Assembly (NCBI GenBank): GCA_963734845.1
Contig: CAVTIS010000012.1
Span: 67,641-131,640, forward strand
DNA from: an uncultured delta proteobacterium
GTDB taxonomy: Bacteria; Desulfobacterota; Binatia; Binatales; Binataceae
DNA: 64,000 bases
Reading direction: 5' to 3'
Positions 14,594-52,943 of this stretch are shown piece by piece (positions within the stretch are counted from its first letter, which is position 1; every line of letters begins with the position of its first letter). Below the pieces are notes generated by a model. The model searched no databases and was not told the DNA's origin. It saw nothing but the letters and a program-made list of their open reading frames with translations. The position numbers and the translations under genes were made by a program.

Positions 14594-15754
14594 TTATAGA
14601 ATTTCCAGACTCTGCCCCAGCCAGGCGAGGTCAGCAAGTTCAACCGGCTCTCGTCCGAGATCGGGCACCGCGGCGACCTCCAGTTGCGGCGATCCGCCGG
14701 CGCGCAGGGAGGCTATCGCCGCGGCCTCGCGCTGACGCAACGCGGCGAACTCTCCTGCCGCGCGGATGAGTTTGCGCCTTACCGCCGGTCCAAGCGGCGC
14801 GCGCCTGATCTGCGCCACCGATGGAATCGCGGGCAGCGTGCGATTGACAATTACCGCCCGCGGCTCGATCCCGGCCGCGCGCAGCGCGTCGAGGAACTCA
14901 TGCGCCTGCGCGATGCGCTCGGGCTCGGCCGTGGTGACGACGACCACCGCGGTGTCGCTGGCAACGAGGAGTCGCTGCGCGCGCCCGGCCCGTTCGGCGA
15001 ATCCCGCATACATCCCGTCGAAGCTGCGCACGAAGGCTTGCACGTCGCCGAGCAGATGCAGTCCCGTCAGCCGGTCGAAGGCAGAGAGCACGGCGCGCGC
15101 GGCGAGGTCGACGACGCTGAACCCGCGGCGCATCCCGCCGCCGAGCAGGGTCACCGCGCGCGAGTTGAGCAGGTCGAGCAGGCGGCGCGGCGCGTCGAGG
15201 AAGTCCAGCGCCTCGCGCGCGGGCGGCGTGTCGAGCACCACCAGGTTGGTCGTCGGCTCCTCGCTAAGTTCGAGCAGCCGCTCCATCGCCATATAATCGC
15301 CGACGCCGGCCAGCGCCTGCGAGAGATTGCGGTAGATGCGGTTTTGCATGATCGCGTCGGCGGCGGCGGGCGAGGGCGCATGGCGCGCGACGATCGCGTC
15401 GAAGGTGCGCTTGGGGTCCAGGCGCAGTGCGCGCAGGCGTCCGGCGCGCCGCGCCGGACGCCTGCGCGCACCTGCCGCATCCGCCGAATCGCCCGCGGCC
15501 TCGTTCATGGCTTGCGTATCTGGCAAACCCTCCAGCGGCACTTCGCGGGGCTCGGCGGCGTCGACGCCGCCGAGCCCCAGCGCGTCGAGCAGGCGCGGCG
15601 CCGGGTCGACGGTCATCACGTCGACCCGCCGCCCGGCCATCGCGGCGCTAAGCGCGAGCGCGGCACTGACGGTGGTCTTGCCGACGCCGCCGGGGCCGAG
15701 GCAGACGAGCAGCCGGCCCGCGAGCAGGCCGTGCGCCGGGTGCGTGGCAGTCAT
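14594..15754 (-). CDS. ArsA/Get3-like ATPase, second of pair
   Basis: GPGGVGKTT, TVDPAPRL, VVLDTPP. Confidence 0.85.
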   Translation of the reverse strand: MTATHPAHGLLAGRLLVCLGPGGVGKTTVSAALALSAAMAGRRVDVMTVDPAPRLLDALGLGGVDAAEPREVPLEGLPDTQAMNEAAGDSADAAGARRRPARRAGRLRALRLDPKRTFDAIVARHAPSPAAADAIMQNRIYRNLSQALAGVGDYMAMERLLELSEEPTTNLVVLDTPPAREALDFLDAPRRLLDLLNSRAVTLLGGGMRRGFSVVDLAARAVLSAFDRLTGLHLLGDVQAFVRSFDGMYAGFAERAGRAQRLLVASDTAVVVVTTAEPERIAQAHEFLDALRAAGIEPRAVIVNRTLPAIPSVAQIRRAPLGPAVRRKLIRAAGEFAALRQREAAAIASLRAGGSPQLEVAAVPDLGREPVELADLAWLGQSLEIL

Positions 15755-16755
15755 CGCGGTTTCGCCGCGCGCGCGGCCCTTGCCGCGCGCGGCGGCTTTC
15801 CCGCTCGACGCGGGGCTGTTCCCGGCGGAGCCGGGAACAGCCCCGCGTCGAGCACCCGGCTCAGCTCTTCGAGTTCAGCCCTGCCGAGCGCCGGGCTGAA
15901 CAGCATCGGCAGTTCGACCACGCCCAGCCCGGCGCGGGACGCATCGCGGCGCATGCGCGCCGCGATGCGTCCCGCGCCGTCGCGCCACTGCGCGAGGCGC
16001 GCGCATCCTGGAGGCGCCTTCGGCGCATCCAGCGCGTCGAGGTCGCTGCGGGTGAACAGCGCGGATGGCACGCAGTTGAGCGCCGCCGCCGCGACGCTCA
16101 CGTTGAGCCGCCCGCGCAGCACGTCGGAGGCCTCGAGCGCCTCGCGCAGCGCCAGCTCCTGCGGCGTCAGCGTCAGTATCACGGCAAAGCGCGTCGCGTC
16201 GGCAAGGAAGCTTTCGACGTTGGCGGCGAGACGGTTAAGCGTTCCGATCGGAGCAAGCTGCTTGAGCGCGCCGGGCACCGCGAGCAGTTCCAGCGCGCTG
16301 CCGGTCGCCGGCGCATCGACCACTGCGTAGCGGTCCTCCAGCGCGGCACGGCCGGCGATAATGCGCAGGCGCTCGAGCATCAGGAACGCTTCCAAGCCCG
16401 GCAGCGCGGCACTGACGTAGCCGAAGGTGCGGCTCTGGAGCATCCGGCGCGCGACGGCTTTGATTGGCACTAGCCTTTCGATGAACGCTTCGAGCTCGGT
16501 GCTTGCGCTGAGCGAGATGGTTTCCAGGTTGGCGATCGGGTCAAGCTTTGGGGCCGCGTCTGCGCCATTGCGCGACCGGGCTTCGTTACCATCGAGCGCC
16601 GCGATCCCGAGCATCCGCGCCGCCCACATCCGCTGGTCCAGATCGACCAGCGTCGTGGGCCGCCGCCGCGCCAGCGAGAGCGCAAGCGCCGCTGCCACCG
16701 CACTTTTGCCGGTGCCGCCCTTGCCGGTGACCAGGATTAGCCGCGCGAGCGCCAT
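15751..16755 (-). CDS. ArsA/Get3-like ATPase, first of pair
   Basis: VTGKGGTGKS, ALPGLEA, VVDAPATG; 4-bp overlap with partner. Confidence 0.85.
   Translation of the reverse strand: MALARLILVTGKGGTGKSAVAAALALSLARRRPTTLVDLDQRMWAARMLGIAALDGNEARSRNGADAAPKLDPIANLETISLSASTELEAFIERLVPIKAVARRMLQSRTFGYVSAALPGLEAFLMLERLRIIAGRAALEDRYAVVDAPATGSALELLAVPGALKQLAPIGTLNRLAANVESFLADATRFAVILTLTPQELALREALEASDVLRGRLNVSVAAAALNCVPSALFTRSDLDALDAPKAPPGCARLAQWRDGAGRIAARMRRDASRAGLGVVELPMLFSPALGRAELEELSRVLDAGLFPAPPGTAPRRAGKPPRAARAARAAKPR
15803..15853. repeat. Perfect inverted repeat, 24-bp arms, 3-nt loop
   Basis: GCTCGACGCGGGGCTGTTCCCGGC-GGA-GCCGGGAACAGCCCCGCGTCGAGC. Confidence 0.95.
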
Positions 16756-17167: not shown

Positions 17168-17950
17168 GTGTTCGCCGCGATGGCGCTGTCGGAAGCGGCG
17201 GCGCCGCGCCGTCCCCGCTCGTATTCTCGGTTCACGCGATGGCCGGGCAATCTCGCTATCGTGACTCTGAATACGGCACTCATTCGGGTTTTGCTTCCGA
17301 CCACGGCCGTAGCTCTGGCCGTGCTTGGAGCGAAACGAGGCTGGGGACTGTTCAACAACCTGCCGTTTCCATCGTGGGTCGAGGTGGTCGCGTCCGTTGT
17401 CATCCTCGACGCCGCCATCTATCTGCAGCACGTGATGTTCCATGCGGTGCCCGCGCTGTGGCGGGTGCATCGGGTGCATCATGCCGACCTGGATTTCGAC
17501 GTGACTACGGGCGCGCGCTTCCATCCGATCGAGATCGGGCTCTCGATGCTGCTCAAGTTCGGCCTCGTGATGGCGCTGGGAGCGCCGGCGCTCGGCGTGC
17601 TCAGCTTCGAGGTCCTGCTGAACGCGACCTCGATGTTCAACCACGGTAATCTTCGCATCCCGGTTCGGTTCGACCGCTACCTTCGATGGCTGATGGTCAC
17701 GCCGGACATGCACCGGGTGCATCACTCGATCGTCGTTACGGAGACCAACAGCAATTTCGGCTTCAACCTGCCATGGTGGGATCGCCTGCTCGGAACCTAT
17801 CGCGACCAGCCCGCCGCCGGCCATGACGGCATGACCATCGGGATCGAGCAGTTCCGCGACGCGCGCGAATTGCGGATCGATCGGATGCTGCTGCAGCCAT
17901 GGCGCGGCCCCGCGGGCGGATACCCGATTGCAGGGAGGAGCGCGCCATGA
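17168..17950 (+). CDS. Sterol desaturase / fatty-acid hydroxylase family protein; true start probably further upstream
   Basis: His boxes HVMFH, HRVHH, MFNH, MHRVHHS; FGFNLPWWDRLLGTY. Confidence 0.9.
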   Translation: MFAAMALSEAAAPRRPRSYSRFTRWPGNLAIVTLNTALIRVLLPTTAVALAVLGAKRGWGLFNNLPFPSWVEVVASVVILDAAIYLQHVMFHAVPALWRVHRVHHADLDFDVTTGARFHPIEIGLSMLLKFGLVMALGAPALGVLSFEVLLNATSMFNHGNLRIPVRFDRYLRWLMVTPDMHRVHHSIVVTETNSNFGFNLPWWDRLLGTYRDQPAAGHDGMTIGIEQFRDARELRIDRMLLQPWRGPAGGYPIAGRSAP

Positions 17951-18708
17951 ACCATCGCAGTATGGCCGTGCGTCTGATCGTCGTAGCGGCGCTGCTCGCG
18001 GCGATTGTTTACCTGGCGATTCATCGAAGCTTTCTCGAGCCTTCCGTCTTGGACCGTGAACTGCATAGTTTCGGCCGACTGGCGCCGATTCTGTTCGTTC
18101 TGCTCTATGCCGTGGGCACCGTCGTATTCGCGCCCGGATCGATAATGACCGTGGCCGGGGGCGCTCTGTTCGGCCCGGTATGGGGAACCCTGTGGAATCT
18201 CACCGGCGCGGCCCTGGGCGCCGCGTTCGCCTTTGCGATCGCGCGCTACCTCGCGTCGGATTGGGTTTCCAGGCGCGCGGGAGAACGACTGGCCCGGCTG
18301 ATGCGGGGAGTCGAGGAAGAGGGGTGGCGCTTTGTGGCCCTCGTGCGGCTGGTGCCGCTGTTTCCGTTCAATCTGGTCAATTACGCATTCGGACTGACAC
18401 GAATTCGGTTTGCTGAGTATGTGCTCGCATCCTTTATATTCATGGCTCCGGGGACGTTGGCGTTTACCTACCTTGGTTACGCGGGCCGCGAAGCCGCATC
18501 CGGGCAGGCCGGGGCAATCCGCAAGGCTCTGCTTGCCTTGGGGTTGCTTGCGGCCGTTGCTTTCCTGCCGCGGCTGGTGCGCCGGCTCAAGGGTCCGCGC
18601 TTTATCGACGCGGGCACCCTTAGACGCCGGCTCGAGAGCGGCGCTGACCGATCGCGGAGCTACGGGGAAGAATCCGGGAGCTGTCCGAGATCAAGGGAAA
18701 GCCACTGA
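17947..18708 (+). CDS. VTT/TVP38/DedA-family membrane protein; C-terminal rhodanese extension frameshifted
   Basis: GGALFGP, RLVPLFPFNLVNYAFGLT; ATGA overlap with desaturase. Confidence 0.9.
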   Translation: MNHRSMAVRLIVVAALLAAIVYLAIHRSFLEPSVLDRELHSFGRLAPILFVLLYAVGTVVFAPGSIMTVAGGALFGPVWGTLWNLTGAALGAAFAFAIARYLASDWVSRRAGERLARLMRGVEEEGWRFVALVRLVPLFPFNLVNYAFGLTRIRFAEYVLASFIFMAPGTLAFTYLGYAGREAASGQAGAIRKALLALGLLAAVAFLPRLVRRLKGPRFIDAGTLRRRLESGADRSRSYGEESGSCPRSRESH

Positions 18709-18845
18709 TAACCGTTTGACGAAACGAACAGCGCTCGGCGAGCGCTGCGGCAGTGCTTACGAAAGCGGGTTTCGAGCAAGTATTCGTTCTGCGCGGCGGG
18801 ATGGAAGGCTGGAACAAGGCGGGCTGTCCGGTCGAGAGGAATTGA
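18648..18845 (+). pseudogene. Out-of-frame rhodanese half-domain with in-frame TGA at the catalytic Cys position (putative Sec)
   Basis: PIAELRGRIRELSEIKGKPLITV-TGA-RNEQRSASAAAVLTKAGFEQVFVLRGGMEGWNKAGCPVERN-stop. Confidence 0.8.
18729..18747 (+). promoter_or_regulatory. Candidate bacterial SECIS element
   Basis: CAGCGCTC-GGC-GAGCGCTG perfect 8-bp stem, loop starts with G, 17 nt after TGA 18717-18719. Confidence 0.65.
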
Positions 18846-18889
18846 ACTTTGGAACCGGCCATGACGATCGATGCGCGGGCCCCTCTTAC

Positions 18890-21289
18890 TCAGCCCTCGC
18901 GCAATTCGACCGCGTAGTTGCGGCCTTCCCACTGCTCACGCGTCTTCCAATAGAAAGTGAAGCGCACGGGCGCGCGGTCGGCGGTGGTGACTTCGATATC
19001 GACGAAATCGAGTCCCACCGCAGTGTGGGTCGAATGGCTGTCGAAGACGTGATGCCATTCGTCCTTGCTCCAGTGCAGCATGAAGGGTTCGCCGCTGTGG
19101 ATGCGGAGCTTGGACGGGAGTGTGATGGACTCGATTTGCCGGTTGTGCTTCCAAACCTCGATTGGAGCGCGCGGCGCGCCGTCGCGGTAGCGTTCCGCGA
19201 CTTCGGGGATGAGATCGAAGATGACGCCGTCGGCGGCCGAGCGCAGAAGTTTCAGGTACTCCGCGTGCGCCCACATCAGGGGCATCGCAGCCCCGGTCGG
19301 CCCGCCGAAATGCATCAGCGCCGCCGGCAGGTCGGGCCCGTCCCAGACCTGTTCGGGCAACAGCCGCGTCGAGGTGGCGAAGTTTTCGATCGCGCGCAGG
19401 TATGGGATGACGTCGCGGCCCGCTGCGAGTTCGTAATGGCCGCGCTCGCCGCTCAACAGCGGCCACGGCCGCCCGACGCCCCATCCCACGAACGGGCCGC
19501 CGTCGTCGCGCTGGCCGTAGCCGTCATGCGTATAGCGCTTCCAGCACGGCCCGGCCGGGAAGTCGGTCTTGAGCACCGCGTCGACGACCCGCAGCGAATC
19601 CTCGACCAGCGGGTCGCCGGGGCGGCGGATGCCGTAGCGCACCAGTTCCAGGAAACCCGCGTCGACAATTTCGGCCGCCGGAAATAGATAGGGCGCGCCG
19701 GGCGGGCGGTTGCGGATCGGCACCAACCCCTGGTCGGGATCGTCATTGGGCACTGTGAGCGCGGGGTCGGCCGGATTGATTCGTACGTAGTGGCGCTTGA
19801 TGCCCGGCACGAGAAAGCCCTGGTTGGTTACGGTCCAGCGTTCGATATGCGATTCGAGGAAATCGGCGTAGTCGAGCAGAAACTGCGCCGTGGTCGTGTC
19901 GCCGCGCCCGTGCGCCAGGTTCGACGCGCAAACCAGCGCCGCGATATTGCTCGCGAGGGTCGCGGGCGAGTAGCCGCTATTCTCCTCCCATCGCTCCTGC
20001 GGCGTGACCGGGCCTTCGTGAATCAGGTAGCGCGCGGCCGCCAGCACCATCGGGTACGGATCCAGACCCATCGTCGCGCCGGCATGCACCAGCCGGTACG
20101 CCAGCATGATCGGAAAGGCGACTTCGTCGAGCTGGATGCCCTGCCAGTAGGGCGTGCCGTCGATCCAGAAATTCTGCGGGAAACCGCCGTCGGGCCGCTG
20201 CGAGCACGCGAGGTAGATGAGCGCGCGCACCGGAGTCGCAAGGTCGCCGCCGGCGAGCAGCCCGGTCGCGCTGTTGACCATGTCGCGAGTCCATACCAGA
20301 TGATAGCCGCCGAGGTCTTCGTCGCCCTTGACCTCGCCCCACGGGATGCTCAGCGACGCGATGAGCGCGCCGGAGAAGCGCTTGTCCTCGTGCGCGAGCA
20401 GCAATTCGCGGGTTCTGTGGCAGAGATGGCCGCCGTCGCCGGTCCATCGCTCCAGCGGGTACATGTGCAAGCAGGCGCGGGTCCATTGCTCGAGGAAGCG
20501 CGCCGAGTGTTGCGCGAACGGCACCCCGAGCGACTGATAAAGACAGGTAACCGCGCGATGCAGGCCGTTGCCGAAAGCCAGGCCAAGGGTGAAGTGGTAG
20601 TCCTCGGGCAGGGCGATTTCCGCGGTCAGCGCAACGTTGCCGTCGGGGGCCGAGGCGAACTGCCAGTCGAGCTCGAAATTGTGATTGAGGTCCTGCCATC
20701 CGTCGGTCTTGCCGACGTAGCCGCAGGAGCGTCGCACGAACGGCACGTTGGCTCCCAGAGCCAGCCAGGTATTGTCCTTGTGCGCGGTCAGAAACTCGTA
20801 CCCGGCCATCCGCGCGACGTTGGCGCTGTTGCCCCACCCACCGACGTTCAGATGCGGCGAGAGCAGCACGAATAGCCGCAGGCGGCGCAGCAGGTCGGCA
20901 TCGCCTTCGAGCCGCGTGTCCACCAGCAGGCACGGCTGATGCGGGTCAGTGATGATCTCCATCACCACGCAGTAGCGCCCCTCACGGTCGGCATTGATGA
21001 TGCGCACGCCGAGGCCGCGATCGCCGAGGTACTCGATGGAAGTGTCCTGGTTGCGATGGACGTCGTGGAAAAAAGTTTCGCCGTCGGTCACCAGGTACTG
21101 CAGATCGCGGATTTGCGGCCGATCGATCGTCGGATAGTAGATTTCGTTGAGCACGCCGCCCGAGGCGGTGAACCAGATGGGACTCGCGGTGGAGTAGGCG
21201 GTGCCGACGACGTCCTTGGCGCTGTAGGTCCAGCGCGGCTCGATTCCGGGGCCTCCCCAGGCTCGCGGTTCGTTCTCGATGATGGCCAT
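18890..21289 (-). CDS. Glycoside hydrolase family 15 glucoamylase/glucodextranase-like
   Basis: GYHLVWTRD, QLDEVAFP, QERWEENSGYS, LLPEQVWD, PLMWAHAEY. Confidence 0.92.
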   Translation of the reverse strand: MAIIENEPRAWGGPGIEPRWTYSAKDVVGTAYSTASPIWFTASGGVLNEIYYPTIDRPQIRDLQYLVTDGETFFHDVHRNQDTSIEYLGDRGLGVRIINADREGRYCVVMEIITDPHQPCLLVDTRLEGDADLLRRLRLFVLLSPHLNVGGWGNSANVARMAGYEFLTAHKDNTWLALGANVPFVRRSCGYVGKTDGWQDLNHNFELDWQFASAPDGNVALTAEIALPEDYHFTLGLAFGNGLHRAVTCLYQSLGVPFAQHSARFLEQWTRACLHMYPLERWTGDGGHLCHRTRELLLAHEDKRFSGALIASLSIPWGEVKGDEDLGGYHLVWTRDMVNSATGLLAGGDLATPVRALIYLACSQRPDGGFPQNFWIDGTPYWQGIQLDEVAFPIMLAYRLVHAGATMGLDPYPMVLAAARYLIHEGPVTPQERWEENSGYSPATLASNIAALVCASNLAHGRGDTTTAQFLLDYADFLESHIERWTVTNQGFLVPGIKRHYVRINPADPALTVPNDDPDQGLVPIRNRPPGAPYLFPAAEIVDAGFLELVRYGIRRPGDPLVEDSLRVVDAVLKTDFPAGPCWKRYTHDGYGQRDDGGPFVGWGVGRPWPLLSGERGHYELAAGRDVIPYLRAIENFATSTRLLPEQVWDGPDLPAALMHFGGPTGAAMPLMWAHAEYLKLLRSAADGVIFDLIPEVAERYRDGAPRAPIEVWKHNRQIESITLPSKLRIHSGEPFMLHWSKDEWHHVFDSHSTHTAVGLDFVDIEVTTADRAPVRFTFYWKTREQWEGRNYAVELREG

Positions 21290-38594: not shown

Positions 38595-41500
38595 TCACGT
38601 GGCGCGATGCTGGCCGCTTCGCGGCCAGCATCGCGCCACGTACCCGCAGCCGAGCGCGCGGCACTCGCGCGCCTCGGCCGGCCGCTTCGGATAGCCGGCG
38701 GGCCCGCGCTCCGCGCGGGCCGCGGCTATCGCGCGGCCGAGCGCCAGCAGATGCGCGCGGATCGCGTCGAGCGGCGCCAGCTTGAGTTGGCGCCGCTCGA
38801 CGCGATCGCGCAGATACACGACCTCCGCGCTCACTTCGCGGCCGGGCAGGGCCTCGGCCGCGGCCAGCGCGTAGCATTCCATCTGCACCTGGTAATCGCC
38901 GGCCCCGGCGCGCGAGTATTTGTAGTCGCTCACCACGAGGCGCTTTCCGTCGTCGATTAGCAGATCGATCCGGCCGCGGATGTAAAGCGTGAGGCCGTCG
39001 CCTTCGACACTCATGAAAAAAGGCGTTTCGCGGCGCGTGATGGAACTCGCGGCGGCGCTCGCCCCCGGTGGATCGTCGCGCGCGCTCGCATAGCGGAGGA
39101 GATCGCGGACGAGCGCGCGGCGCGCGGCCAAATCAAGATTGGCGCCCGCGCCATGGATGCCGGCCAGGCGCGCGATTTCCGCTTCGAGAGCCGGCGCGGG
39201 TGTGGCCGGGCTCAGTTGTTCGAGCACCGCGTGCGCGACCGAGCCGAGCGCGGTCGCCCCGCCGCCGTCGAAGGTGAAGGCGGCGCCCGCGCCGCTTTCC
39301 GGCAACTCGAGTTCGCGGCGCAGGAAATACTGGCGCGGACAGCGTTCGAAGTCTTCGAGCGCGCTTGGACTGGTGACCAGTTCGCGGACCGGCGGTGCGA
39401 CGAAGCCGAGGCGCGCTCGCGCGGCCTGCGCCAAGTCGGCGAGCGGCGGTGGCGCGGGGTGCGCGAGCGGCGCGCCGGCTTCCCGCGCGAGCGCGTCCGC
39501 GCGCCGCAGCACAATTTTCACCTCTCCCGCATCGACGATCGTTTCGGTATCCGCGGCGCCGAGAAACGCGTCCACCTTTTCGGGCCCGACTGCGGCGCGG
39601 ACGTGCTTGATCCAGTCAGCGCCCGGCGCGCCTTCGCTCAGGATCAGCCGGTCGCGCGCCCGCGTCATCGCGACGTACAGCACGCGCGCCGCCTCGGCCT
39701 TTTCCTGATCTTTTACAGCCGCGCGATACTCGTTGATCAGCGAATTCGGCAGCGGGTCGTCGCCAGCGCCGACAGTGTCGCACACGAGTAGCCCGTCGCC
39801 TGGCGTCGTCACAATATTTTCGTTATTGGGCGGTGGCCGGCGTCCCAGGTCGCCGACGATCGCCACGGGGAATTCGAGGCCTTTGGCCTGATGGATGGTC
39901 ATCAGGCGCACGACGTTGTCGGCCTCGCCGGCGATCTGCGCCTGCGGCTCGCGCGGCTGTTCTTCTACCAGGCGGCGCAGATGGCGCACGAAATCGCCAA
40001 GCCCGAAGAAGCGATGCGTCTCGAATTCGCGCGCGGTTTCCGTCAGCTTGCGCACGTTGGCAGCGCGCTGCAGGCCGTTGGGCAGACCGAGTAAGACCGC
40101 CTCGAAATGTGTTAGTTCGAGTGCGTGCTCAACGATCGCCGTCAGCGAGGCGCGCTCGCGCATCCTGCGCAAGCTAAGTAGCGCGTCTTTGGCGACGAGC
40201 GCTGCTTTGCGGCCGTCGCGGAGCCACGCGAATTCTTCGCCCGCGTCGCAGAACAACTCCCACCACTTGCGCGGTCCTGTCGGCTCGTTGCTGGGTTCGG
40301 TCCCGCGTTCGGCCTCGTGCTGATGCAGCGCCATTTCGAGCAGGCACTGATCGGAGAGGCCGAACAGCGGCGAGCGCAGCGCCGCGGCAAGTTCGAGCGG
40401 ATTTTGCGGGTCGTCGATCGCCCCCAGCAGCGCGGCAAGGTCGTTTACTTCTTTGCAGCCATAAAAGCCGCGCCCCTTGACGGTATAGAAGGGCACGGCA
40501 GCCCGTGCGAAGGCGTCTTCGTAAATCGCGACGTCGGTGAAAGAGCGCAATAGCAGCGCAATGTCGCCGAATTCTACCCCGCGGCGCTCGCCGCTATGCT
40601 CATCGGTCACCAGAACTGAATCACCAATCATCCGAGCGCAGCGCCGCGCGATGGCGTCCGCCTCGATCCGGCGGAGGTCGCGCGTGCTGAGCTTCGTTCC
40701 GTCGGCGTCCTGCCCCTTCGGACTCACGATCAGTTCGACCGCGGGCGCGTCGTCCGCGGGCCGGATCGCCGCCAGCCGATGCTCCTCGCTCCATTTCACC
40801 TTGTAGGGCTTGTCGTCCGAGTCGTCGCCGGGCTTCATCGAATGTGCGCTCACCGCGTTGACGAACTCGACGATCGCCGGAAGCGAGCGTCGGTTCTCGC
40901 ACAGCGGCCGCGGCAGCATCGCGAGCGGTTCGCGCTCGCGATTGAACACCGTCACGTCGGCGCCGCGGAAGCGGTAGATCGATTGTTTCTCGTCGCCCAC
41001 CACGAAAAGTTCCGGCGCCGGCGCGGCGTATTCGGTCAGAAGACGCACCACGCCGTCCTGGATCGGGTCGGTGTCCTGGTATTCGTCGACCAGCAGAGCA
41101 CCGAGCGCGCGCCGGTAGCGCTCGGCGACCTCTGGATGGTCTTGAAGGAGACGCCTGGTCAGGATCAGCAGATCGTCGAAGGTGACGACGCGCTCGTCGC
41201 GCTTGCGCCGTTCGAGTTCGGCGGCGACATCCGCGGCCAGCGCGGAGATCTCGAGCGTCGCCGGAGCCGCACGATAAGCGCCGTATGCGTCGAGTAACTG
41301 AGCGATGATTCCGGGTTGCTTCTGGGTTTTGTTGCCGCGGATTGCGTAGACGAGGTCCTTGACCTTGTCACTTTGGGCCGCGGGCAGACATTCCTTTAGA
41401 TCGTCGAATACCGTCCACTCCGCAGGCTCCGAATCCGCACTGAACGCTTCAACCGCTGGCTGGAGGATCGGCCATTCGCCGCGCAATTCGTCGAGTTTTT

Positions 41501-42230
41501 CTTTGGCGGTGCCACCGAGATTGCGGACGGCGAGCAATTTGCCGACCAGTTCAACCAGTTGCACGCGGAGCGCGGGAATCGCTGCTCCATACGCGCGCAG
41601 CTTCGCCGCCGTCACCTCAGCGGTTTCGCGAATCCAGTCTCGCGAGCGGCCCAGACGGGCGGCCTCGCCGATCGCCTGCAGCACGACGCCGATCGCGCCG
41701 TTTCGATGAGTGAAACCGTAGAGGCCGCGCGCGCCCGCCAGGCGCATCGCTCCGGGATGCTGCGTGCGCACCGCGTCGGCGATCGACTCGCGGCAGGCGC
41801 TCTCGAGAAACGTGATGCTCTGGTACTCGTCGAGCACCTCGAAGCCCGGATCGACGCCGGCTTCGATCGGATACTCGCGCAGCATTCGCGCGCAAAACGC
41901 ATGGATGGTCGAGATGCGCGCGAGGCCGAGCGTGCGCCGCGCGCGAATCAGCGCCGCGCGACGCGCCGCGTCGCCCTCGCGCGCAATCCGATCGTCGAGA
42001 ACTTCGGCGATACGTCGGCGCATGTCGGCGGTCGCTTTTTCGGTGAACGTGATCGCGGCGATCCGATCGGGCGCGAGCGGCTCGCGCTTCGCGATATCGC
42101 CGGCGAGCAGTGCGACGAAGCGCTGTGCCAGGACCTCGGTCTTGCCCGAGCCTGCGCCGGCGCGCACTAGCACGTTACCCGCCGCGTAAACCGCGTCGCG
42201 CTGTTCGCTCGTGAGTTCGACCCGTGCCAA
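38595..42230 (-). CDS. addA: AddA-type UvrD helicase/nuclease
   Basis: AGAGSGKT, VDEYQD, VGDEKQSIYRFRGA, MTIHQAKGLEF, YVAMTRARD, GRIDL..DYK. Confidence 0.92.
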   Translation of the reverse strand: MARVELTSEQRDAVYAAGNVLVRAGAGSGKTEVLAQRFVALLAGDIAKREPLAPDRIAAITFTEKATADMRRRIAEVLDDRIAREGDAARRAALIRARRTLGLARISTIHAFCARMLREYPIEAGVDPGFEVLDEYQSITFLESACRESIADAVRTQHPGAMRLAGARGLYGFTHRNGAIGVVLQAIGEAARLGRSRDWIRETAEVTAAKLRAYGAAIPALRVQLVELVGKLLAVRNLGGTAKEKLDELRGEWPILQPAVEAFSADSEPAEWTVFDDLKECLPAAQSDKVKDLVYAIRGNKTQKQPGIIAQLLDAYGAYRAAPATLEISALAADVAAELERRKRDERVVTFDDLLILTRRLLQDHPEVAERYRRALGALLVDEYQDTDPIQDGVVRLLTEYAAPAPELFVVGDEKQSIYRFRGADVTVFNREREPLAMLPRPLCENRRSLPAIVEFVNAVSAHSMKPGDDSDDKPYKVKWSEEHRLAAIRPADDAPAVELIVSPKGQDADGTKLSTRDLRRIEADAIARRCARMIGDSVLVTDEHSGERRGVEFGDIALLLRSFTDVAIYEDAFARAAVPFYTVKGRGFYGCKEVNDLAALLGAIDDPQNPLELAAALRSPLFGLSDQCLLEMALHQHEAERGTEPSNEPTGPRKWWELFCDAGEEFAWLRDGRKAALVAKDALLSLRRMRERASLTAIVEHALELTHFEAVLLGLPNGLQRAANVRKLTETAREFETHRFFGLGDFVRHLRRLVEEQPREPQAQIAGEADNVVRLMTIHQAKGLEFPVAIVGDLGRRPPPNNENIVTTPGDGLLVCDTVGAGDDPLPNSLINEYRAAVKDQEKAEAARVLYVAMTRARDRLILSEGAPGADWIKHVRAAVGPEKVDAFLGAADTETIVDAGEVKIVLRRADALAREAGAPLAHPAPPPLADLAQAARARLGFVAPPVRELVTSPSALEDFERCPRQYFLRRELELPESGAGAAFTFDGGGATALGSVAHAVLEQLSPATPAPALEAEIARLAGIHGAGANLDLAARRALVRDLLRYASARDDPPGASAAASSITRRETPFFMSVEGDGLTLYIRGRIDLLIDDGKRLVVSDYKYSRAGAGDYQVQMECYALAAAEALPGREVSAEVVYLRDRVERRQLKLAPLDAIRAHLLALGRAIAAARAERGPAGYPKRPAEARECRALGCGYVARCWPRSGQHRAT
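38597..38641. repeat. Perfect inverted repeat, 21-bp arms, 3-nt loop
   Basis: ACGTGGCGCGATGCTGGCCGC-TTC-GCGGCCAGCATCGCGCCACGT. Confidence 0.95.
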
Positions 42231-42247
42231 TTGATCCAGCTCCGGCG

Positions 42248-45200
42248 CTAGGTTCCGGACTCAGCCGTTTTGTAATAGCGGCAGACCGAGCGATATGGGC
42301 ACCAGTCGTCGCACTGGCGCGGATCGACGTCGAAGCGGCCTGCGAGCGCGTCGTCGACCAGCGCGATCATCCGCTCCGCCACCGGACGTTCGCCCGATTT
42401 TGTCGCGGCCGCGCGCCGTTTCGGATCGGGGTCGATTAAATTGCGCGCGACCTCAGCGATCTGGGCTTTGTCGCGATTTCGCAGCACCAGGTAGCCGGCC
42501 TGAAGCGTTACGTTCGCAGCCAACCGTTCATCGAACTCGCAAAGCGCGCCCATCAGGTAGACCGGCAACTGGAAGTCGGTCCATCCGAACTGTGCGCCCC
42601 CGGCCTCCGCCAACTTGCCATAGCGCTTGGCGCTGCGCGAATTCTTGTAGTCGATCACGCGGATGGTTTTGACCGCGCCCTTGCCCGGATGCAATTCCAG
42701 GCGATCGATTCGGCCCTCCAGCCATAGGCGCACCCGTTTTGGGTCGTTGAGATCGGCGAGCGCGAAGCGGAGTTGATGCTCGGTCAGGATTTCGGCATCG
42801 GGATTCGCCTCGCGGTCGGCGATTTCGATCTCGATGAACTCCTGGACGGTGCGCTCGATCGAGCGCCATCGCAGATCGAAAAAACCCTGGTCGCGTGCGA
42901 GCGCCCGGCGCTCGTCGCGCAGCGCATCGAGGACCTCACCCGCGTTCGCTCGCGCGCTGGACGGGTCACTGAAATCAATATGATCGAGCAGCCGTTTGAG
43001 CACCTCGTGGATCAATTCGCCGCCTTCGAGCGCGCTCAGCTCGTAGTCCTGCTCCTCGTCTTCGCTGAGCGCCAAAACGCGATGCGCGAAGAACTTGAAA
43101 CCGCAGGCCGCGAGCTCGCCCAGCTTCGTGGCGCTCCACGCCCTTGGAGCTTTCGGGTCGCCGCACAGCATCCGCGTCAGACGGGCATCGGGCGCCACCC
43201 GTCCGTCCCATCGCTCCGCTCGCGCGAATTTGTCGGGGTCTGGCCCATAGCGCATCCCCACGTCATCGGGGTCGGGAGATTCCTCGCGCGTCGGCAGCTT
43301 CAGATATTGTTCCCGGTCCCGTTCGATCTGAGAGCGATCGCCAATCGAGTCGAGCGTCGCGCGGCTCTCGATCGTCTCGGCCTCCGCGGATTTCAGGATC
43401 CCATCGGCGGCGGCCCGCGCGAGAAATTCGTCGCGTGACAGACACCCGGCGATGGTGGGGATGACGCTCGAGGCGGGGATACGCCTTACCTCGCCACCCA
43501 ATGCCGGATTGCCGAGCAGGCGCAGGACCTCGTCAACGAATGGCGAGCGGACCATCGGATTGCCGCCTGCCTCGGCCGCCGCGTAGCACAGCACCACGCG
43601 CCGCGACGGCATCGAGAGGGCGAGAAAGAACAACAGAAAATCCTCGCCGTTGCGTTCGTAGCGCGTGCGCAGGATTGCGCCGGCGCGGCTCGGCGCAGCG
43701 GCGCCGAAGCGCCGCCTGAGCGCTTCACCCAGCGGCCGATTGAGTGCGAGCTTTACTTCGTCGGGGAGCAGCGGGTCATCGGGATGGTAGCCAGGGAAGA
43801 TGCCGTCGTTGAGCCCGATTACGAAGACCAGGTCGAAGTCGAGCCCGCGCGCATCGAGCACCGTGAGCGCAACCACTCCTCCCGCAGTTTCACTATCGGC
43901 CGGAGCCGCGGCGCAATCCAATGCGGTCTCGGCCATCGAGGCGAACTCAGCCGCGTCGACGACGCGTTCGCTTCCGGCGAGCGCGGCCCATCGCGAGAGT
44001 CCTTCGAGCGCCGCGCGCACGGGACCCCATGCCCGCGCGGCATCATCGACCACCGCGTCGATTCCATCACTTACACCCGCGGGATCGAAGCCGAGCAAGC
44101 CCAGCGCGTGTTCGAGGCGCTCCAGATGCTCGGCGAGCGTACCGGATTGAGCGAGCGGTTCGAGCGCCGCCATCATACGTTCGAAGCGCGCGCCCGCGCG
44201 CTCGATAGCGATGAGGCGCCGCTCCGTCGGGCGGCGCTCGGCGCTCTGCGCGCCGGTTTTCTCGATCGCGCGGCGCAGCTCTTCGACGTGACGCTCGAGG
44301 CGATCCATCAGCGGCTGCGCGCTGCCGTCAACGTAGCCGATCTGGTCGAGCGTACGCGCCAAGTCAGCATCGATTGCGGTCAGATGCGGCGAGCGGCACA
44401 ACGCAACGATCGCCTCGCGCGGAAACCGTTCGCGCGGCGCGCGCAGAATCTCCACGATCAGCCGTGCGGGCGCGCTCGCGCGCAATGCCGGCGGATGGCC
44501 GATCGCGAGTGGGATGCCGTAGCGATGAAACACGGCGCGCAGATGCTCGGAGTAGGGCGCGAGATCGCGCGCGACGACTGCTATCCGATCTGGCGCGATC
44601 GGCTCCGGCGATTCCATCGCGTGCCGGATCGCGCGGCCGACCTCCTCGATCTCGCCGAGCGGCGTCGGCGCTTCGACTACCTGGAGCGTCTCGTCGGCGG
44701 GCGGTGGCGCGCCGGCGGTCTCCATGAACAGGTGCTCGAGGACAAAGCCGAGCCGTCCGGAGCGCCCGCCGCGGCGCACGAAGTCAGGCAACACTTTGTC
44801 CGCGATCGATTCTTCGGCGACGAAACGGTTCCAGGTCAGCTCGGCGAAGCGTCCCGCGTTGGCCGAATGATCGGCGGCCTGGATGGTGAGCGTGGCGTCG
44901 CCGACAGTCCGGATCAACGCGGTGACGATCATGAACTGGAGCAGGCTGAAATCGTAGATCTCGGCGACCTGCAGATGCCGCACGCCGTCGAGCAGCGCCG
45001 GCCGCGCGCCGCTTTTCTCCAGCGCGAGCAGATGCTCGAGCACCACGCGCTCGCGGTCGTGACGATCGGAAAGCCCGCGCCTGGCGAGCAGGCGCTCGTA
45101 GCGTTCAAACGCATCGGAGAGGCCGGCGATGCGATCGCGGACGCCGCCGGCGTTGTCTCCCGGCGCGAGCGCGCGCGACGCTGCGCGCAGGTCGGAGGGC

Positions 45201-45475
45201 GTCAGCGCCGCGCTCTTGAACTGGCGGATGAGTCCGAGGACGTGATTGGCGCTGCCGAGCGTCGCGCGCGTGCCGCTCATCGCCTCATCGGCGGCGAGCC
45301 GCTCCTGCAACTCGTCGAGCAGCATGCCGCGCGGGCCGAATTCGCGCCATAGTCGATCGACCAGCTGCGGAAAAGTCATGATCGGATAGTCGAGCAATGA
45401 GCGGCCGCGGCTATGCCGCATCAGCCAGTCTTCGACTTTGCGCGCAGTGGGGTAGAGCGCGATTACGTCGTTCAC
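42248..45475 (-). CDS. addB: AddB-like PD-(D/E)XK nuclease with Fe-S cysteines
   Basis: CGFKFF; GRIDRLE..IDYK; QLPVY; CDDWCPYRSVC; adjacent to addA. Confidence 0.88.
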   Translation of the reverse strand: MNDVIALYPTARKVEDWLMRHSRGRSLLDYPIMTFPQLVDRLWREFGPRGMLLDELQERLAADEAMSGTRATLGSANHVLGLIRQFKSAALTPSDLRAASRALAPGDNAGGVRDRIAGLSDAFERYERLLARRGLSDRHDRERVVLEHLLALEKSGARPALLDGVRHLQVAEIYDFSLLQFMIVTALIRTVGDATLTIQAADHSANAGRFAELTWNRFVAEESIADKVLPDFVRRGGRSGRLGFVLEHLFMETAGAPPPADETLQVVEAPTPLGEIEEVGRAIRHAMESPEPIAPDRIAVVARDLAPYSEHLRAVFHRYGIPLAIGHPPALRASAPARLIVEILRAPRERFPREAIVALCRSPHLTAIDADLARTLDQIGYVDGSAQPLMDRLERHVEELRRAIEKTGAQSAERRPTERRLIAIERAGARFERMMAALEPLAQSGTLAEHLERLEHALGLLGFDPAGVSDGIDAVVDDAARAWGPVRAALEGLSRWAALAGSERVVDAAEFASMAETALDCAAAPADSETAGGVVALTVLDARGLDFDLVFVIGLNDGIFPGYHPDDPLLPDEVKLALNRPLGEALRRRFGAAAPSRAGAILRTRYERNGEDFLLFFLALSMPSRRVVLCYAAAEAGGNPMVRSPFVDEVLRLLGNPALGGEVRRIPASSVIPTIAGCLSRDEFLARAAADGILKSAEAETIESRATLDSIGDRSQIERDREQYLKLPTREESPDPDDVGMRYGPDPDKFARAERWDGRVAPDARLTRMLCGDPKAPRAWSATKLGELAACGFKFFAHRVLALSEDEEQDYELSALEGGELIHEVLKRLLDHIDFSDPSSARANAGEVLDALRDERRALARDQGFFDLRWRSIERTVQEFIEIEIADREANPDAEILTEHQLRFALADLNDPKRVRLWLEGRIDRLELHPGKGAVKTIRVIDYKNSRSAKRYGKLAEAGGAQFGWTDFQLPVYLMGALCEFDERLAANVTLQAGYLVLRNRDKAQIAEVARNLIDPDPKRRAAATKSGERPVAERMIALVDDALAGRFDVDPRQCDDWCPYRSVCRYYKTAESGT

Positions 45476-50363: not shown

Positions 50364-52943
50364 GTGAGTAAGCGCAGAACAGAAGGAGCGGCGTCGGCGC
50401 CGCCGCATATGCAATCGCATAAGGCCGAACGCGTAAAGACAGACGCGGTGACGACCGATCCGGTGTGCGGGATGAAGGTCGATTCTGCGACCGCGCGGCA
50501 CTCGCACCTTCACGACGGCATTACCTACTACTTCTGTTGCGAAGGATGCCGCGCGAAATTCGTCGCCGCGCCGGCGAAGTATCTCGCCGCCGCGGCGACG
50601 AATGCGCCGGCCGCGTCCGCTGCTCAGGCCGAGCCGCTTTCGCACGAGGCTCACGGCGGCCGCGCGATGCAGGCGGCATCCGCCGCGTCGGGTCGCGCGG
50701 CTCCGTCCGCTGCGTCGGGCAGTTACACCTGTCCGATGGATCCCGAGGTGCATGCGGAGCGGCCCGGCGCGTGTCCGAAATGCGGAATGGCGCTCGAGGC
50801 GCCACTGGTGCCCGTATCGCCCGGCGCGATCGAGTACGTTTGCCCGATGCATCCCGAGGTCGTTCAGGACCATCCTGGCAGTTGCCCGAAATGCGGAATG
50901 GCGCTGGAGCCGCGCGTTGCCACCGTCGAAGAAGCGCCCAACGCCGAACTCGCCGACATGACGCGGCGCTTTTGGGTGAGCACAGCGCTCGCGGTCCCGC
51001 TGCTGTTGATCTCGATGTCCGACCTGCTGCCGGGAAAGCCGCTGATGCGCGCGCTCGGCGCCGGGCCGTTCGTGTGGGTCCAGCTTTTGCTCGCAAGCCC
51101 GGTCGTACTGTGGGGCGCGCTACCGTTTTTCGAGCGCGGCTGGCGCTCGCTGGTGAATCGCCATCTCAACATGTTCACGCTGATTTCGCTCGGCGTCGGG
51201 ATTGCTTACGCCTATAGCGTGGTCGCCGCGATTTTTCCCGGCCTTCTTCCGCCCACGGCAGCGAGCGCGTCCGCAATGGTGCCGGTCTATTTCGAATCCG
51301 CCGCGGTGATCGTGGTGCTGGTATTGCTCGGGCAGGTGCTCGAACTGCGCGCACGCACTCACACCGCTGGCGCTATCCGCGCGTTGCTCGGACTTGCGCC
51401 GAAGAGCGCGCGGCGTCTTGGTGACGACGGCGTCGAAGAAGACGTCGCACTCGCCGAGGTCGCCGTGGGCAATCGGTTGCGCGTGCGTCCCGGCGAGCGC
51501 GTGCCGACCGACGGCGTGGTTGTTGAAGGCGAGAGCGCGGTTGACGAATCGATGCTGACCGGCGAGCCGCTGCCGGTGAGTAAGCGCCCGGGCGACCGTG
51601 TCGCCGGGGGAACCGTCAACACCGCGGGCGCCTTCGTGATGCGCGCCGAGCGAGTTGGCGCTGACACGCTGCTTGCGCAAATAGTGCGGATGGTGGCCGA
51701 CGCACAGCGCAGCCGCGCGCCGATTCAACGCCTGGCCGACGTGGTGGCGGGCTATTTTGTTCCGGCGGTGGTGATTTGCGCGGTGCTCGCGTTCATCGGA
51801 TGGTTCGTCGCCGGGCCGGAGCCGGCGCTCGCGCATGCGATCGTCGCGGCGGTTGCGGTGCTGATCATCGCCTGCCCCTGCGCGCTGGGGCTGGCGACGC
51901 CGATGTCGATCATGGTCGGCACCGGACGCGGCGCGAGCGCCGGCGTACTGGTGCGCGATGCCCAGGCGCTCGAACTGCTCGAGAAAGTCGACACGCTGGT
52001 GATCGACAAGACCGGCACGCTTACGGTCGGCAAGCCGGCGCTGACCGCCGCCGTCGCGCTCGCGCCGTTTGACGAGGCCGAAATGCTGCGGCTCGCGGCG
52101 TCGGTCGAGCGTTCGAGCGAGCATCCGCTCGGCGCGGCGATCGTCGCAGGAGCCACGGCGCGCGCGCTCAAACTTGCCGACGCGGTCGAGTTCCGCGCGC
52201 TCGCAGGCAAGGGGGTGAGCGGTCGCGGCGACGGCCATCAGGTGCTGGCCGGTAACGCCGCGCTGCTTGCCGACAACGGAGTCGACGCGAGCGAGCTTGG
52301 TGCGCGCGCGGAGGATTTGCGTCGCGAGGGCAATACAGTGATGTTCGTGGCGATCGACGGACGCGCGGCGGGGTTGGTCGGTGTGGCCGATCCGGTCAAG
52401 GAAAATGCCGCCGAGGCGCTGAGCGCTCTCCGAGCCGCAAAGGTGCGTATCGTGATGCTGACCGGCGATAGCCGCGTCACCGCCGAGGCGGTCGCCCGGC
52501 GCCTCGGGATTGACGAGGTTCACGCCGAGGTTCTGCCGCAGCGCAAGGCCGAGGTCGTGCGTGAACTGAAACAAGGTGGGCGCGTGGTTGCGATGGCCGG
52601 CGACGGTATCAACGACGCGCCGGCGTTGGCGGCCGCCGACGTAGGAATCGCGATGGGGACCGGCACCGACGTCGCGATGGAGAGCGCGGGCGTGACGCTG
52701 GTGCGGGGCGACTTGAGTGGGATCGTGCGGGCGCTGCACCTTAGCCGCGCGACCATGCGCAACATCCGCCAGAACCTCTTTTTTGCTTTCATCTACAACA
52801 CCATTGGAGTCCCGATCGCTGCCGGCGCGCTCTACCCGTGGTTCGGCCTGATGCTCAATCCGATGATCGCGAGTGCCGCGATGAGCCTCAGTTCGGTTTC
52901 GGTGATCTCGAACGCGCTGCGGTTGCGCACGCTCAGGCTCTAG
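50364..52943 (+). CDS. copA: Cu(I)-type P1B ATPase with YHS and two YxCPMHP-type domains
   Basis: [14 protein letters not shown]; YTCPMDP, YVCPMHP; TGE; ACPCALG; DKTGT; GDGINDAP; YN..MSLSS. Confidence 0.93.

Follow-up and report, generated by a model that had tools for sequence, protein, structure and literature searches.

Rhodanese-like selenoproteins are already known from bacteria, and a 2026 review of the prokaryotic selenoproteome distinguishes forms 1-5, including the NCBIfam families NF041203 (rhodanese_LYCAU) and NF045694 (TsoB) (PMC13188914). Fusions of a DedA/VTT membrane domain (PF09335) to a rhodanese domain (PF00581) with Cys have also been noted, for the COG0586 subfamily, with the link between the two called 'unclear' (Todor et al. 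2023, PMC10127716). Here we report on a gene that appears to bring these two themes together. It lies at 17947-18845 on the forward strand of the window, by which we mean the whole 64-kb stretch of contig CAVTIS010000012.1 that was analysed (64% G+C), and it is very probably a disrupted copy, or a mis-assembly, of a Binataceae selenoprotein gene that joins a VTT domain to a rhodanese domain. We put the probability that the intact VTT-rhodanese family is a genuine selenoprotein at roughly 0.85-0.9, judging from sequence comparison.

Like forms 1-5, the Binataceae protein has a PF00581 domain and a candidate bacterial selenocysteine insertion sequence (SECIS) after the UGA, and as in forms 1, 2 and 4 (UxxS, UxxG) its motif opens with selenocysteine (Sec). 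It differs from the five in the motif itself, the listed ones being UxxS, UxxG, CxU and UxxxxU whereas the Binataceae loop reads U-R-[TSN]-E-[KQ]-R-S, and it scores far below the cut-offs of both NF041203 (52.7 bits, cut-off 115) and TsoB NF045694 (26.3 bits, cut-off 805). None of the five forms is described as a membrane VTT/DedA fusion. The VTT-rhodanese is set apart from them by these descriptions, and it may overlap with the generic entry 'rhodanese-related sulfurtransferase'. The fusions of Todor et al. 2023 have the same two-domain architecture, but no Sec form is mentioned there (PMC10127716), and JGI annotation assigns the present family to YdjX (TVP38/TMEM64). A Sec form of the DedA-rhodanese fusion does not appear under that description in the tables of the reviews, in the main text of the BSepDB paper or among the NCBIfam selenoprotein models, and we found no paper that joins selenocysteine with TVP38, VTT or TMEM64 and none that links Binatia with selenocysteine. 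What is new here is an unrecognised membrane architecture together with a lead from gene context, while bacterial selenoproteins of the rhodanese family are already known.

Among the closest solved relatives of the rhodanese domain is that of BpPRF (PDB 5ve3 and 5ve4; E 2.7e-16), although 1yt8, a thiosulfate sulfurtransferase, scores higher. The BpPRF loop (...PIVTVCRAGGRSAQA) can be aligned residue for residue with the Binataceae loop, and its catalytic residue, Cys in 5ve3 and Ser in the variant 5ve4, stands in the column of the TGA codon. BpPRF differs in being a soluble protein with a dioxygenase as its fusion partner, in using Cys and in having Gly at position +3 of the loop. E. coli YgaP is a membrane-anchored rhodanese encoded in an operon with the ArsR-type repressor YgaV. 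The likeness to our family is that a rhodanese tethered to the inner membrane is paired with an ArsR/SmtB-family regulator, which here lies divergently upstream in 89 of the homologous loci surveyed below. YgaP, in contrast, has its rhodanese at the N terminus followed by two C-terminal helices, has neither a DedA domain nor Sec, and shows only weak similarity (E 1.4e-5, PDB 2moi/5hbl).

In the window the gene is broken at one point by comparison with its intact counterpart on L001, a 747-kb ENA contig with the same gene order and flanking proteins about 99% identical. Its features are:

17947-18647 (+): part of the VTT/DedA gene colinear with intact homologues (Pfam VTT_dom 1.6e-27), near-identical to P0001/L001
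about 18133-18480 (+): VTT/DedA membrane domain, followed by a basic linker and the first rhodanese residues (FIDAGTLRRRLESGA)
18647-18648 (no strand): deletion junction, from pairwise alignment of the window with L001; the intact segment is present in homologues P0001-P0004
18648-18708 (+): out-of-frame tail of the present open reading frame (RSRSYGEESGSCPRSRESH) with stop TGA at 18706-18708, from translation
18648-18716 (+): central rhodanese remnant in the original frame (PIAELRGRIRELSEIKGKPLITV), from translation, Pfam and the L001 alignment
18717-18719 (+): UGA at the catalytic Cys column, the putative selenocysteine codon of the intact gene
18720-18845 (+): C-terminal rhodanese remnant past the UGA (RNEQRSASAAAVLTKAGFEQVFVLRGGMEGWNKAGCPVERN; Pfam Rhodanese), with the true stop TGA at 18843-18845
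18729-18747 (+): SECIS-like hairpin, with an 8-bp stem in the window
18731-18745 (+): invariant core of the hairpin, GCGCUC at 18731-18736, loop GGC at 18737-18739 and GAGCGC at 18740-18745

The reading frame starts at ATG 17947 (MNHRS...), which overlaps the stop of an upstream hydroxylase gene (17950) as ATGA, and runs through ...FIDAGTLRRRLESGAD into RSRSYGEESGSCPRSRESH. It covers positions 2-122 of the 123 in the VTT_dom profile (PF09335; 96.8 bits, cut-off 33.9) and is good through ...LVRRLKGPRFIDAGTLRRRLESGAD; the next 19 residues match nothing in homologues and end at the stop at 18706-18708. The central remnant at 18648-18716 is out of reach of translation from the VTT start, and in the window copy no uninterrupted frame connects that start, by way of the UGA, with the true stop. 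When the TGA is read as Cys, the remnant matches the C-terminal half only of the Rhodanese profile (PF00581; E 1.7e-10, 41.6 bits, cut-off 22.2, positions 52-101 of 102). The intact L001 protein, 324 residues long, matches VTT (2.5e-27) as well as the full Rhodanese profile (1.7e-19, 70.6 bits, positions 3-101 of 102; Pfam). A first-pass annotation of the window had proposed a membrane DedA/VTT-(Sec)rhodanese with a frameshifting deletion, an interpretation that is supported by the comparison with homologues. The loss of the VTT frame at 18647|18648, the second frame that carries TGA 18717 from 18648 onwards, and a hairpin 9 nt after that TGA with its loop 17 nt away (18729-18747) are all where it had placed them. 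Its estimate that a DVR...GHI segment of roughly 25 codons was deleted at about 18648 agrees with the 76 bp, or 25 codons and 1 nt, that are missing relative to L001.

The active-site codon was located in 161 homologous loci from species-representative genomes and metagenomes (162 sources when the window is included). It is TGA in 20 of these loci, TGC or TGT (Cys) in 140 and AGC (Ser) in one, so that counts of 21 TGA forms refer to the 20 loci and the window. Without exception, the TGA of these 20 loci shares its reading frame with the rhodanese sequence upstream and with a downstream peptide that is 60-100% identical to the L001 peptide, and in the alignment it occupies the column of the catalytic Cys of all Cys homologues. 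Over the 38 codons past the TGA, the 17 distinct TGA sequences show pN of 0.18 against pS of 0.51 and a median dN/dS of 0.21, which shows purifying selection, and in most of them the true stop follows 40-42 codons past the TGA. It follows that the stretch beyond the codon is translated. TGA also serves as an ordinary stop, ending 11 of these 17 genes as well as the upstream hydroxylase gene, and since it is still a normal terminator in the same genomes, a global reassignment is ruled out. A neighbour-joining tree of 145 proteins places the TGA forms together in one clade whose only other member is L004 (TGT) and whose sisters are Cys forms. Assemblies with the TGA form include those that contain contigs DATJID010000007, CAWCMA010000001, CAVQAG010000011 and DATGIT010000003, and ENA ERZ25039467 with contig_18720. 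Source organism names place the TGA clade in Candidatus Binataceae (phylum Binatota), and the 140 Cys orthologues come from Alphaproteobacteria, Gammaproteobacteria and Binatia relatives. Near-identical proteins returned by a protein search are 282 residues long, contain ...LESGAESVLLDVRTSDEFRGPLGHIAGAINIPIAELRG... and end in ...KPLITV; among the best 120 protein clusters, about 96 end exactly before the TGA position and about 19 read on with Cys.

The single Ser form, from a proteobacterial homologue (L108:2344), has AGC at the catalytic position (...LAVVSRTDRRS...); presumably it either lacks catalytic activity or reflects an error of sequencing. Other genes with an in-frame TGA in the window and in 150 kb of Binataceae loci turned out to be only artefacts of adjacent genes or shadow reading frames antisense to an ArsR-rhodanese gene.

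All 21 TGA sequences form a stem of at least 6 bp in the same register (GCGCUC, loop G[G/U][C/U], GAGCGC), with stem lengths of 6-9 bp, and the SECIS-like stem begins 11 nt past the UGA and the loop 17 nt past it. The window copy has the inverted repeat CAGCGCTC-GGC-GAGCGCTG, which begins 9 nt past the TGA with its loop again 17 nt past it. Cys forms, of which 124 were scored, show no pairing at the stem site in 97 cases and at most 3 bp in 122. RNAalifold, run on 17 Sec-form sequences, returned this 6-bp stem alone as the consensus (-9.4 kcal/mol); a longer lower stem seen in single-sequence folds (CGAAC/GUUCG) is not conserved and was dropped, and the seventh base pair is A-U in most sequences, G-C in L010 and L089 and a mismatch in others. 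The published bacterial SECIS model calls for a loop of 3-9 nt, a stem of 4-16 bp, a G in the first two loop positions, a spacing of 16-37 nt and a minimum free energy of -7.5 kcal/mol or lower (PMC13188914). The hairpin lies within all of these limits, with a 3-nt loop, a stem of 6-9 bp, a spacing of 17 nt and -9.4 kcal/mol.

The stem is made up of the very codons that specify the active-site loop (Arg CGC, Ser UCG, x NNG, Ser AGC, Ala GCN), and it is here that selection on the RNA can be told from selection on the protein. Arg+5 (CGC), Ser+6 (UCG) and Ser+8 (AGC), all six-fold degenerate, are each written with one and the same codon in all 16 distinct sequences, whereas the other invariant residues with four- or six-fold degeneracy (Pro-5, Ala+9, Leu+13, Ala+16, Val+21, Leu+24, Gly+26 and Gly+27) use 2-4 codons each. 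The constraint ends at the edge of the stem, where each of the four bases occurs at the third position of Ala+9. Moreover, three Cys forms with the identical RSASA peptide use codons that do not pair (0 bp). Judged by this constraint on synonymous sites and by the loss of pairing in Cys forms with the same peptide, the stem is under selection at the RNA level. Residue +8 is Ser in all Sec forms and for the most part Lys in the Cys forms (48 of 124 read RSAKA), and it seems that the RNA requirement shaped the protein, through a Lys-to-Ser change at +8, rather than the reverse. One of the two exceptions among the Cys forms is L004, which is nested among the Sec forms and has kept a 10-bp stem. 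This locus (L004:3844-3880), from a Candidatus Binataceae metagenome-assembled genome (MAG; contig CAVWAA010000009), has a TGT active site followed by a perfect 10-bp SECIS stem and resembles a recent reversion from Sec to Cys that has left the SECIS behind as a fossil.

As for the codon and hairpin claims of the first-pass annotation, the TGA does align with the Cys of 140 homologues and of 5ve3 (Ser in 5ve4), and the hairpin is SECIS-like by the published bacterial constraints. The annotation had named homologues that never show TGA together with a hairpin as an outcome that would speak against it, and 20 independent loci show both. Of its two-part comparison of UGA and Cys homologues, the alignment of the columns stood, while the covariation in the hairpin did not materialise, the stem being invariant.

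Several observations weigh against reading the gene family as a selenoprotein. All Sec forms belong to one clade, so that the contrast of 21 with 124 sequences amounts to about one evolutionary event, and RNAalifold detected no covariation in a stem that never varies. Within the window alone the hairpin is statistically unremarkable: its folding z-score is -0.59, a 6-bp hairpin follows 3.5% of all TGA trinucleotides at a distance of 9-15 nt, and the 64 kb contain 61 perfect 8-bp hairpins with 3-8-nt loops. What significance the hairpin has derives solely from comparing homologues. A scan of the window with Rfam at the gathering threshold and a permissive scan of 18500-18950 yielded only tRNA-Thr and chance snoRNA-like matches, although no Rfam match is expected for a bacterial SECIS. 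Finally, no selA, selB, selC or selD gene was found in the 64-kb window or the fetched Binataceae loci. This search used ARAGORN on the window and all loci, and Pfam, NCBIfam and precomputed annotation for about 40 window genes. ARAGORN found a single tRNA-Thr in the window and, among the loci, one tRNA-Sec, in the gammaproteobacterial Cys locus L061; tblastn with the SelD fragment of L061 gave no match in the Binataceae loci.

How far do these points favour another explanation? In principle the TGA could simply terminate translation, whether as a nonsense mutation in a pseudogene that is decaying or as the genuine end of a protein of 282 residues, and the rhodanese-like 3' part would then be untranslated. 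Gene callers and the NCBI and JGI annotation do end the protein there, and no sel gene turned up in the Binataceae loci. Yet a plain stop would have to stand in the same column at 20 loci whose downstream peptides are just 60-100% identical to that of L001, no start codon follows the TGA, and a protein ending at this position would have its rhodanese domain split exactly at the catalytic residue. A plain stop is contradicted also by the dN/dS of about 0.2 over the next 38 codons, by the true stop 40-42 codons on in most sequences and by the frozen synonymous sites in the stem, and we regard it as extremely improbable. The hairpin might instead be a by-product of R-S-A-S-A coding or of GC-rich codon usage with no functional RNA element, as it lies wholly inside the codons of a conserved active-site loop, lacks covariation and comes from a window rich in such hairpins. 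The three Cys forms that encode the identical RSASA peptide without any pairing argue otherwise, as do the three six-fold degenerate codons that are frozen only within the stem and the Ser (AGC) at +8, present in all Sec forms where Cys forms mostly have Lys; this explanation, too, is very hard to sustain. A last alternative is that the UGA is read through in some way other than as Sec, by a near-cognate Trp or Cys tRNA or by a lineage-specific recoding, with the hairpin as a generic read-through stimulator. C after UGA is a weak termination context in E. coli, and 12 of 16 distinct sequences have C as the next base; the negative outcome for sel genes is again in its favour. Against it, TGA is an ordinary terminator in the same genes and their neighbours, with no global reassignment, the position is that of the catalytic Cys, a classic site of Cys/Sec exchange, the hairpin geometry fits the SelB-type bacterial SECIS model, and the nested revertant L004 has Cys and not Trp, so that we give this possibility little weight. 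Under the selenoprotein reading that we prefer, the catalytic Cys of the rhodanese loop (C-R-x-x-x-R-S) would have been replaced in the Binataceae clade by UGA-encoded Sec, a minimal SECIS (6-bp GC-rich stem, G-first triloop) would direct decoding of the UGA, and the codon would be read as Sec by SelB and tRNA-Sec.

Two Cys-type loci have sel or sel-like sequences close by. In L061 (5728-6975; gammaproteobacterial MAG FW104_bin.7), the VTT-rhodanese gene is followed at a distance of 2-3 kb by a selD 3' end, a thioredoxin-like gene and a tRNA-Sec gene, and in L154 (1-198) a weak SelD-like fragment lies just upstream of another such gene. This proximity, seen in 2 of the 161 loci, may be due to chance.

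The defect of the window copy is a separate question. By DNA alignment, 76 bp of L001 are absent from the window at 18647|18648, with a frame shift of +1 as the result. The missing 76 bp encode ESVLLDVRTSDEFRGPLGHIAGAINI, and the undeleted form is marked by the sequence GTCGGTGCTGCTAGACG...ATCAACATT. Since the deleted piece is the conserved DVR...GHI.GA.NI segment of the rhodanese domain, which is found in every homologue, the window has lost sequence here and the homologues have not gained any. The junction ends show neither repeat nor microhomology, and over 360 nt around the junction the window and L001 differ at few positions only; thus the remnant is near-identical to the intact allele, and the lesion is either very recent or an assembly error. 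We consider it probable that the deletion is biological. The rhodanese domain would then be without its first strand and helix, translation begun at the VTT ATG would end at 18708, and the UGA, the SECIS and the C-terminal half would persist as an untranslated remnant. It is less likely, though it deserves consideration, that the selenoprotein gene of the organism is intact and that the 76-bp gap is an artefact of assembly or consensus, or a minority strain variant taken by the assembler. This would account for the absence of any decay since the lesion. Moreover, no other assembly carries the 76-bp deletion, a fact that counts against its being real; records from other assemblies contain neither the truncated product nor the GH15 protein encoded next to it. 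About 4 of the best 120 related protein clusters and the NCBI MAG L164 are also frameshifted, a pattern typical of metagenome assembly noise. A clean loss of 76 bp without flanking repeats would nevertheless be an atypical assembler error, and the remainder of the window is colinear with L001, in keeping with a biological deletion.

The frameshift in L164 (2001-3069; GCA_049279035.1, contig JBAPNH010000352) is of 1 nt and lies in the linker (...RRLKG|...), giving an annotated protein of 236 residues; its rhodanese part is otherwise intact, UGA and hairpin included. Protein clusters P0030, P0076 and P0112 have comparable frameshifts in otherwise perfect genes.

The product of the intact gene would be an inner-membrane protein of about 324 residues with an N-terminal VTT/DedA domain (TVP38/YdjX-type) and a C-terminal rhodanese domain. 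The stretch that directly follows the last hydrophobic segment, PRLVRRLKGPRF, contains five Arg/Lys, which by the positive-inside rule places the rhodanese domain probably in the cytoplasm. AlphaFold2, applied to the Cys homologue P0005 with a 33-sequence alignment, gave a mean predicted local distance difference test (pLDDT) score of 62, with the VTT domain below 50, a model of low confidence for that domain. The catalytic loop (C/U-R-x-x-x-R-S) has six residues, which we take to be the length of sulfurtransferase-type rhodaneses and not the seven of the Cdc25/Acr2 type. Most likely, to judge from gene context, the protein would act as a membrane-tethered thiol/selenol transferase or reductase.

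That context is as follows, first in the window and then among the homologous loci:

17168-17950 (+): FA_hydroxylase-superfamily gene (membrane di-iron enzyme; Pfam FA_hydroxylase 4.7e-26), the operon partner
14594-16755 (-): two adjacent ArsA/Get3-family ATPase genes, then a DUF4911 gene, divergently upstream of the operon; best NCBIfam models BagB and BagA, below cut-offs
directly upstream: lipid hydroxylase-superfamily gene, present in 143 of the 162 sources, with Sec as well as with Cys forms
divergently upstream: ArsR/SmtB-family helix-turn-helix regulator fused to its own rhodanese domain, in the 89 loci mentioned above, 11 Sec-type (Binataceae) loci among them
adjoining the hydroxylase/VTT-rhodanese pair, mostly directly downstream: small DsrE/TusD-like protein, in 30 loci
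mostly downstream, same strand: ArsS radical SAM (seleno)protein (TIGR04167; 463 bits, cut-off 300), in 24 loci
mostly downstream, same strand: TIGR04283 arsenosugar glycosyltransferase (272 bits, cut-off 182), in 15 loci
mostly downstream, same strand: ArsM-like methyltransferase (below cut-off), in 11 loci

For the window hydroxylase, the nearest NCBIfam model is the ornithine lipid hydroxylase OlsE, which scores far under its cut-off. The arsenosugar cassette (ArsS, TIGR04283, ArsM-type) lies beside the pair, mostly directly downstream, with at least one of its three genes adjoining the pair in 32 loci, or 20 of the 64 Cys-type loci whose downstream sequence extends for 1.5 kb or more. According to its NCBIfam name, ArsS is also a family in which Sec variants occur. 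We found no paper that links arsenosugar synthesis with rhodaneses.

In this most likely role the VTT-rhodanese would act together with the co-transcribed lipid hydroxylase, under the ArsR-type regulator, in sulfur or metalloid (arsenosugar/arsenolipid) metabolism. DedA proteins of COG0398 have been proposed to be phospholipid scramblases (PMC10127716). The DedA-type domain of the fusion might thus handle a lipid, and the substrate could be a lipid of the membrane or else a metalloid or sulfur compound linked to a lipid. The main alternative role would be persulfide handling, as in the YgaVP or BigR systems. Two points speak against the metalloid proposal. The functional assignment takes gene neighbourhood as its sole basis, and the arsenosugar genes, an association only, stand beside Cys forms and not beside the window's own subclade. 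In that subclade (the window, L001 and L002) the regulator is absent too, DUF4911 and the two ArsA/BagAB-like ATPases occupy the upstream side, and a convergent GH15 gene lies downstream. We hold only tentatively, as a doubtful extension of the selenoprotein reading, that this is an undescribed family and the first membrane selenoprotein of the DedA/VTT superfamily, common in soil Binataceae, which forms with the co-translated lipid hydroxylase and the ArsR-rhodanese regulator a module for organo-metalloid lipid chemistry. If this were true, the module could serve arsenosugar or arsenolipid synthesis or the handling of As(III)/As(V) or Se, and the selenol would be a metalloid-binding or metalloid-reducing group at the membrane.

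If the family is a selenoprotein, the roughly 96 clusters cut at the Sec codon, which the databases name 'VTT domain-containing protein' or 'YdjX', mean that the catalytic half of the rhodanese domain is missing from the databases. The rhodanese selenoproteins would gain a membrane-integral, DedA-fused member, and Binataceae, an abundant uncultured soil lineage, would by implication use selenocysteine. The SECIS would be unusually small and made of active-site codons, and the fossil in L004 together with the Lys-to-Ser change would offer a clean natural example of SECIS gain and loss. The conserved neighbourhood (lipid hydroxylase, ArsR-rhodanese, ArsS, ArsM, arsenosugar glycosyltransferase) provides a testable lead on the function of DedA-rhodanese proteins. 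For the window, the outcome is a modest one: its copy of the gene was either broken recently or mis-assembled.

Among the surveyed loci, the hydroxylase/VTT-rhodanese pair is kept from Binatia to Alpha- and Gammaproteobacteria, with translational coupling (ATGA). Examples of loci with arsenosugar genes are L135:1756-2733, L021:2784-3857 and L055:5009-5758, and examples with the ArsR-rhodanese regulator are L003:1444-2115 (-) and L079:851-1657 (-). The window as a whole has a general excess of short inverted repeats, its 61 perfect 8-bp hairpins comparing with 10-21 in first-order Markov shuffles. Elsewhere it encodes an AddAB-like helicase-nuclease pair (UvrD and PD-(D/E)XK; 38595-45475, -) and a heavy-metal P-type ATPase with YHS and HMBD domains (50364-52943, +), both of an ordinary housekeeping or metal-resistance class.

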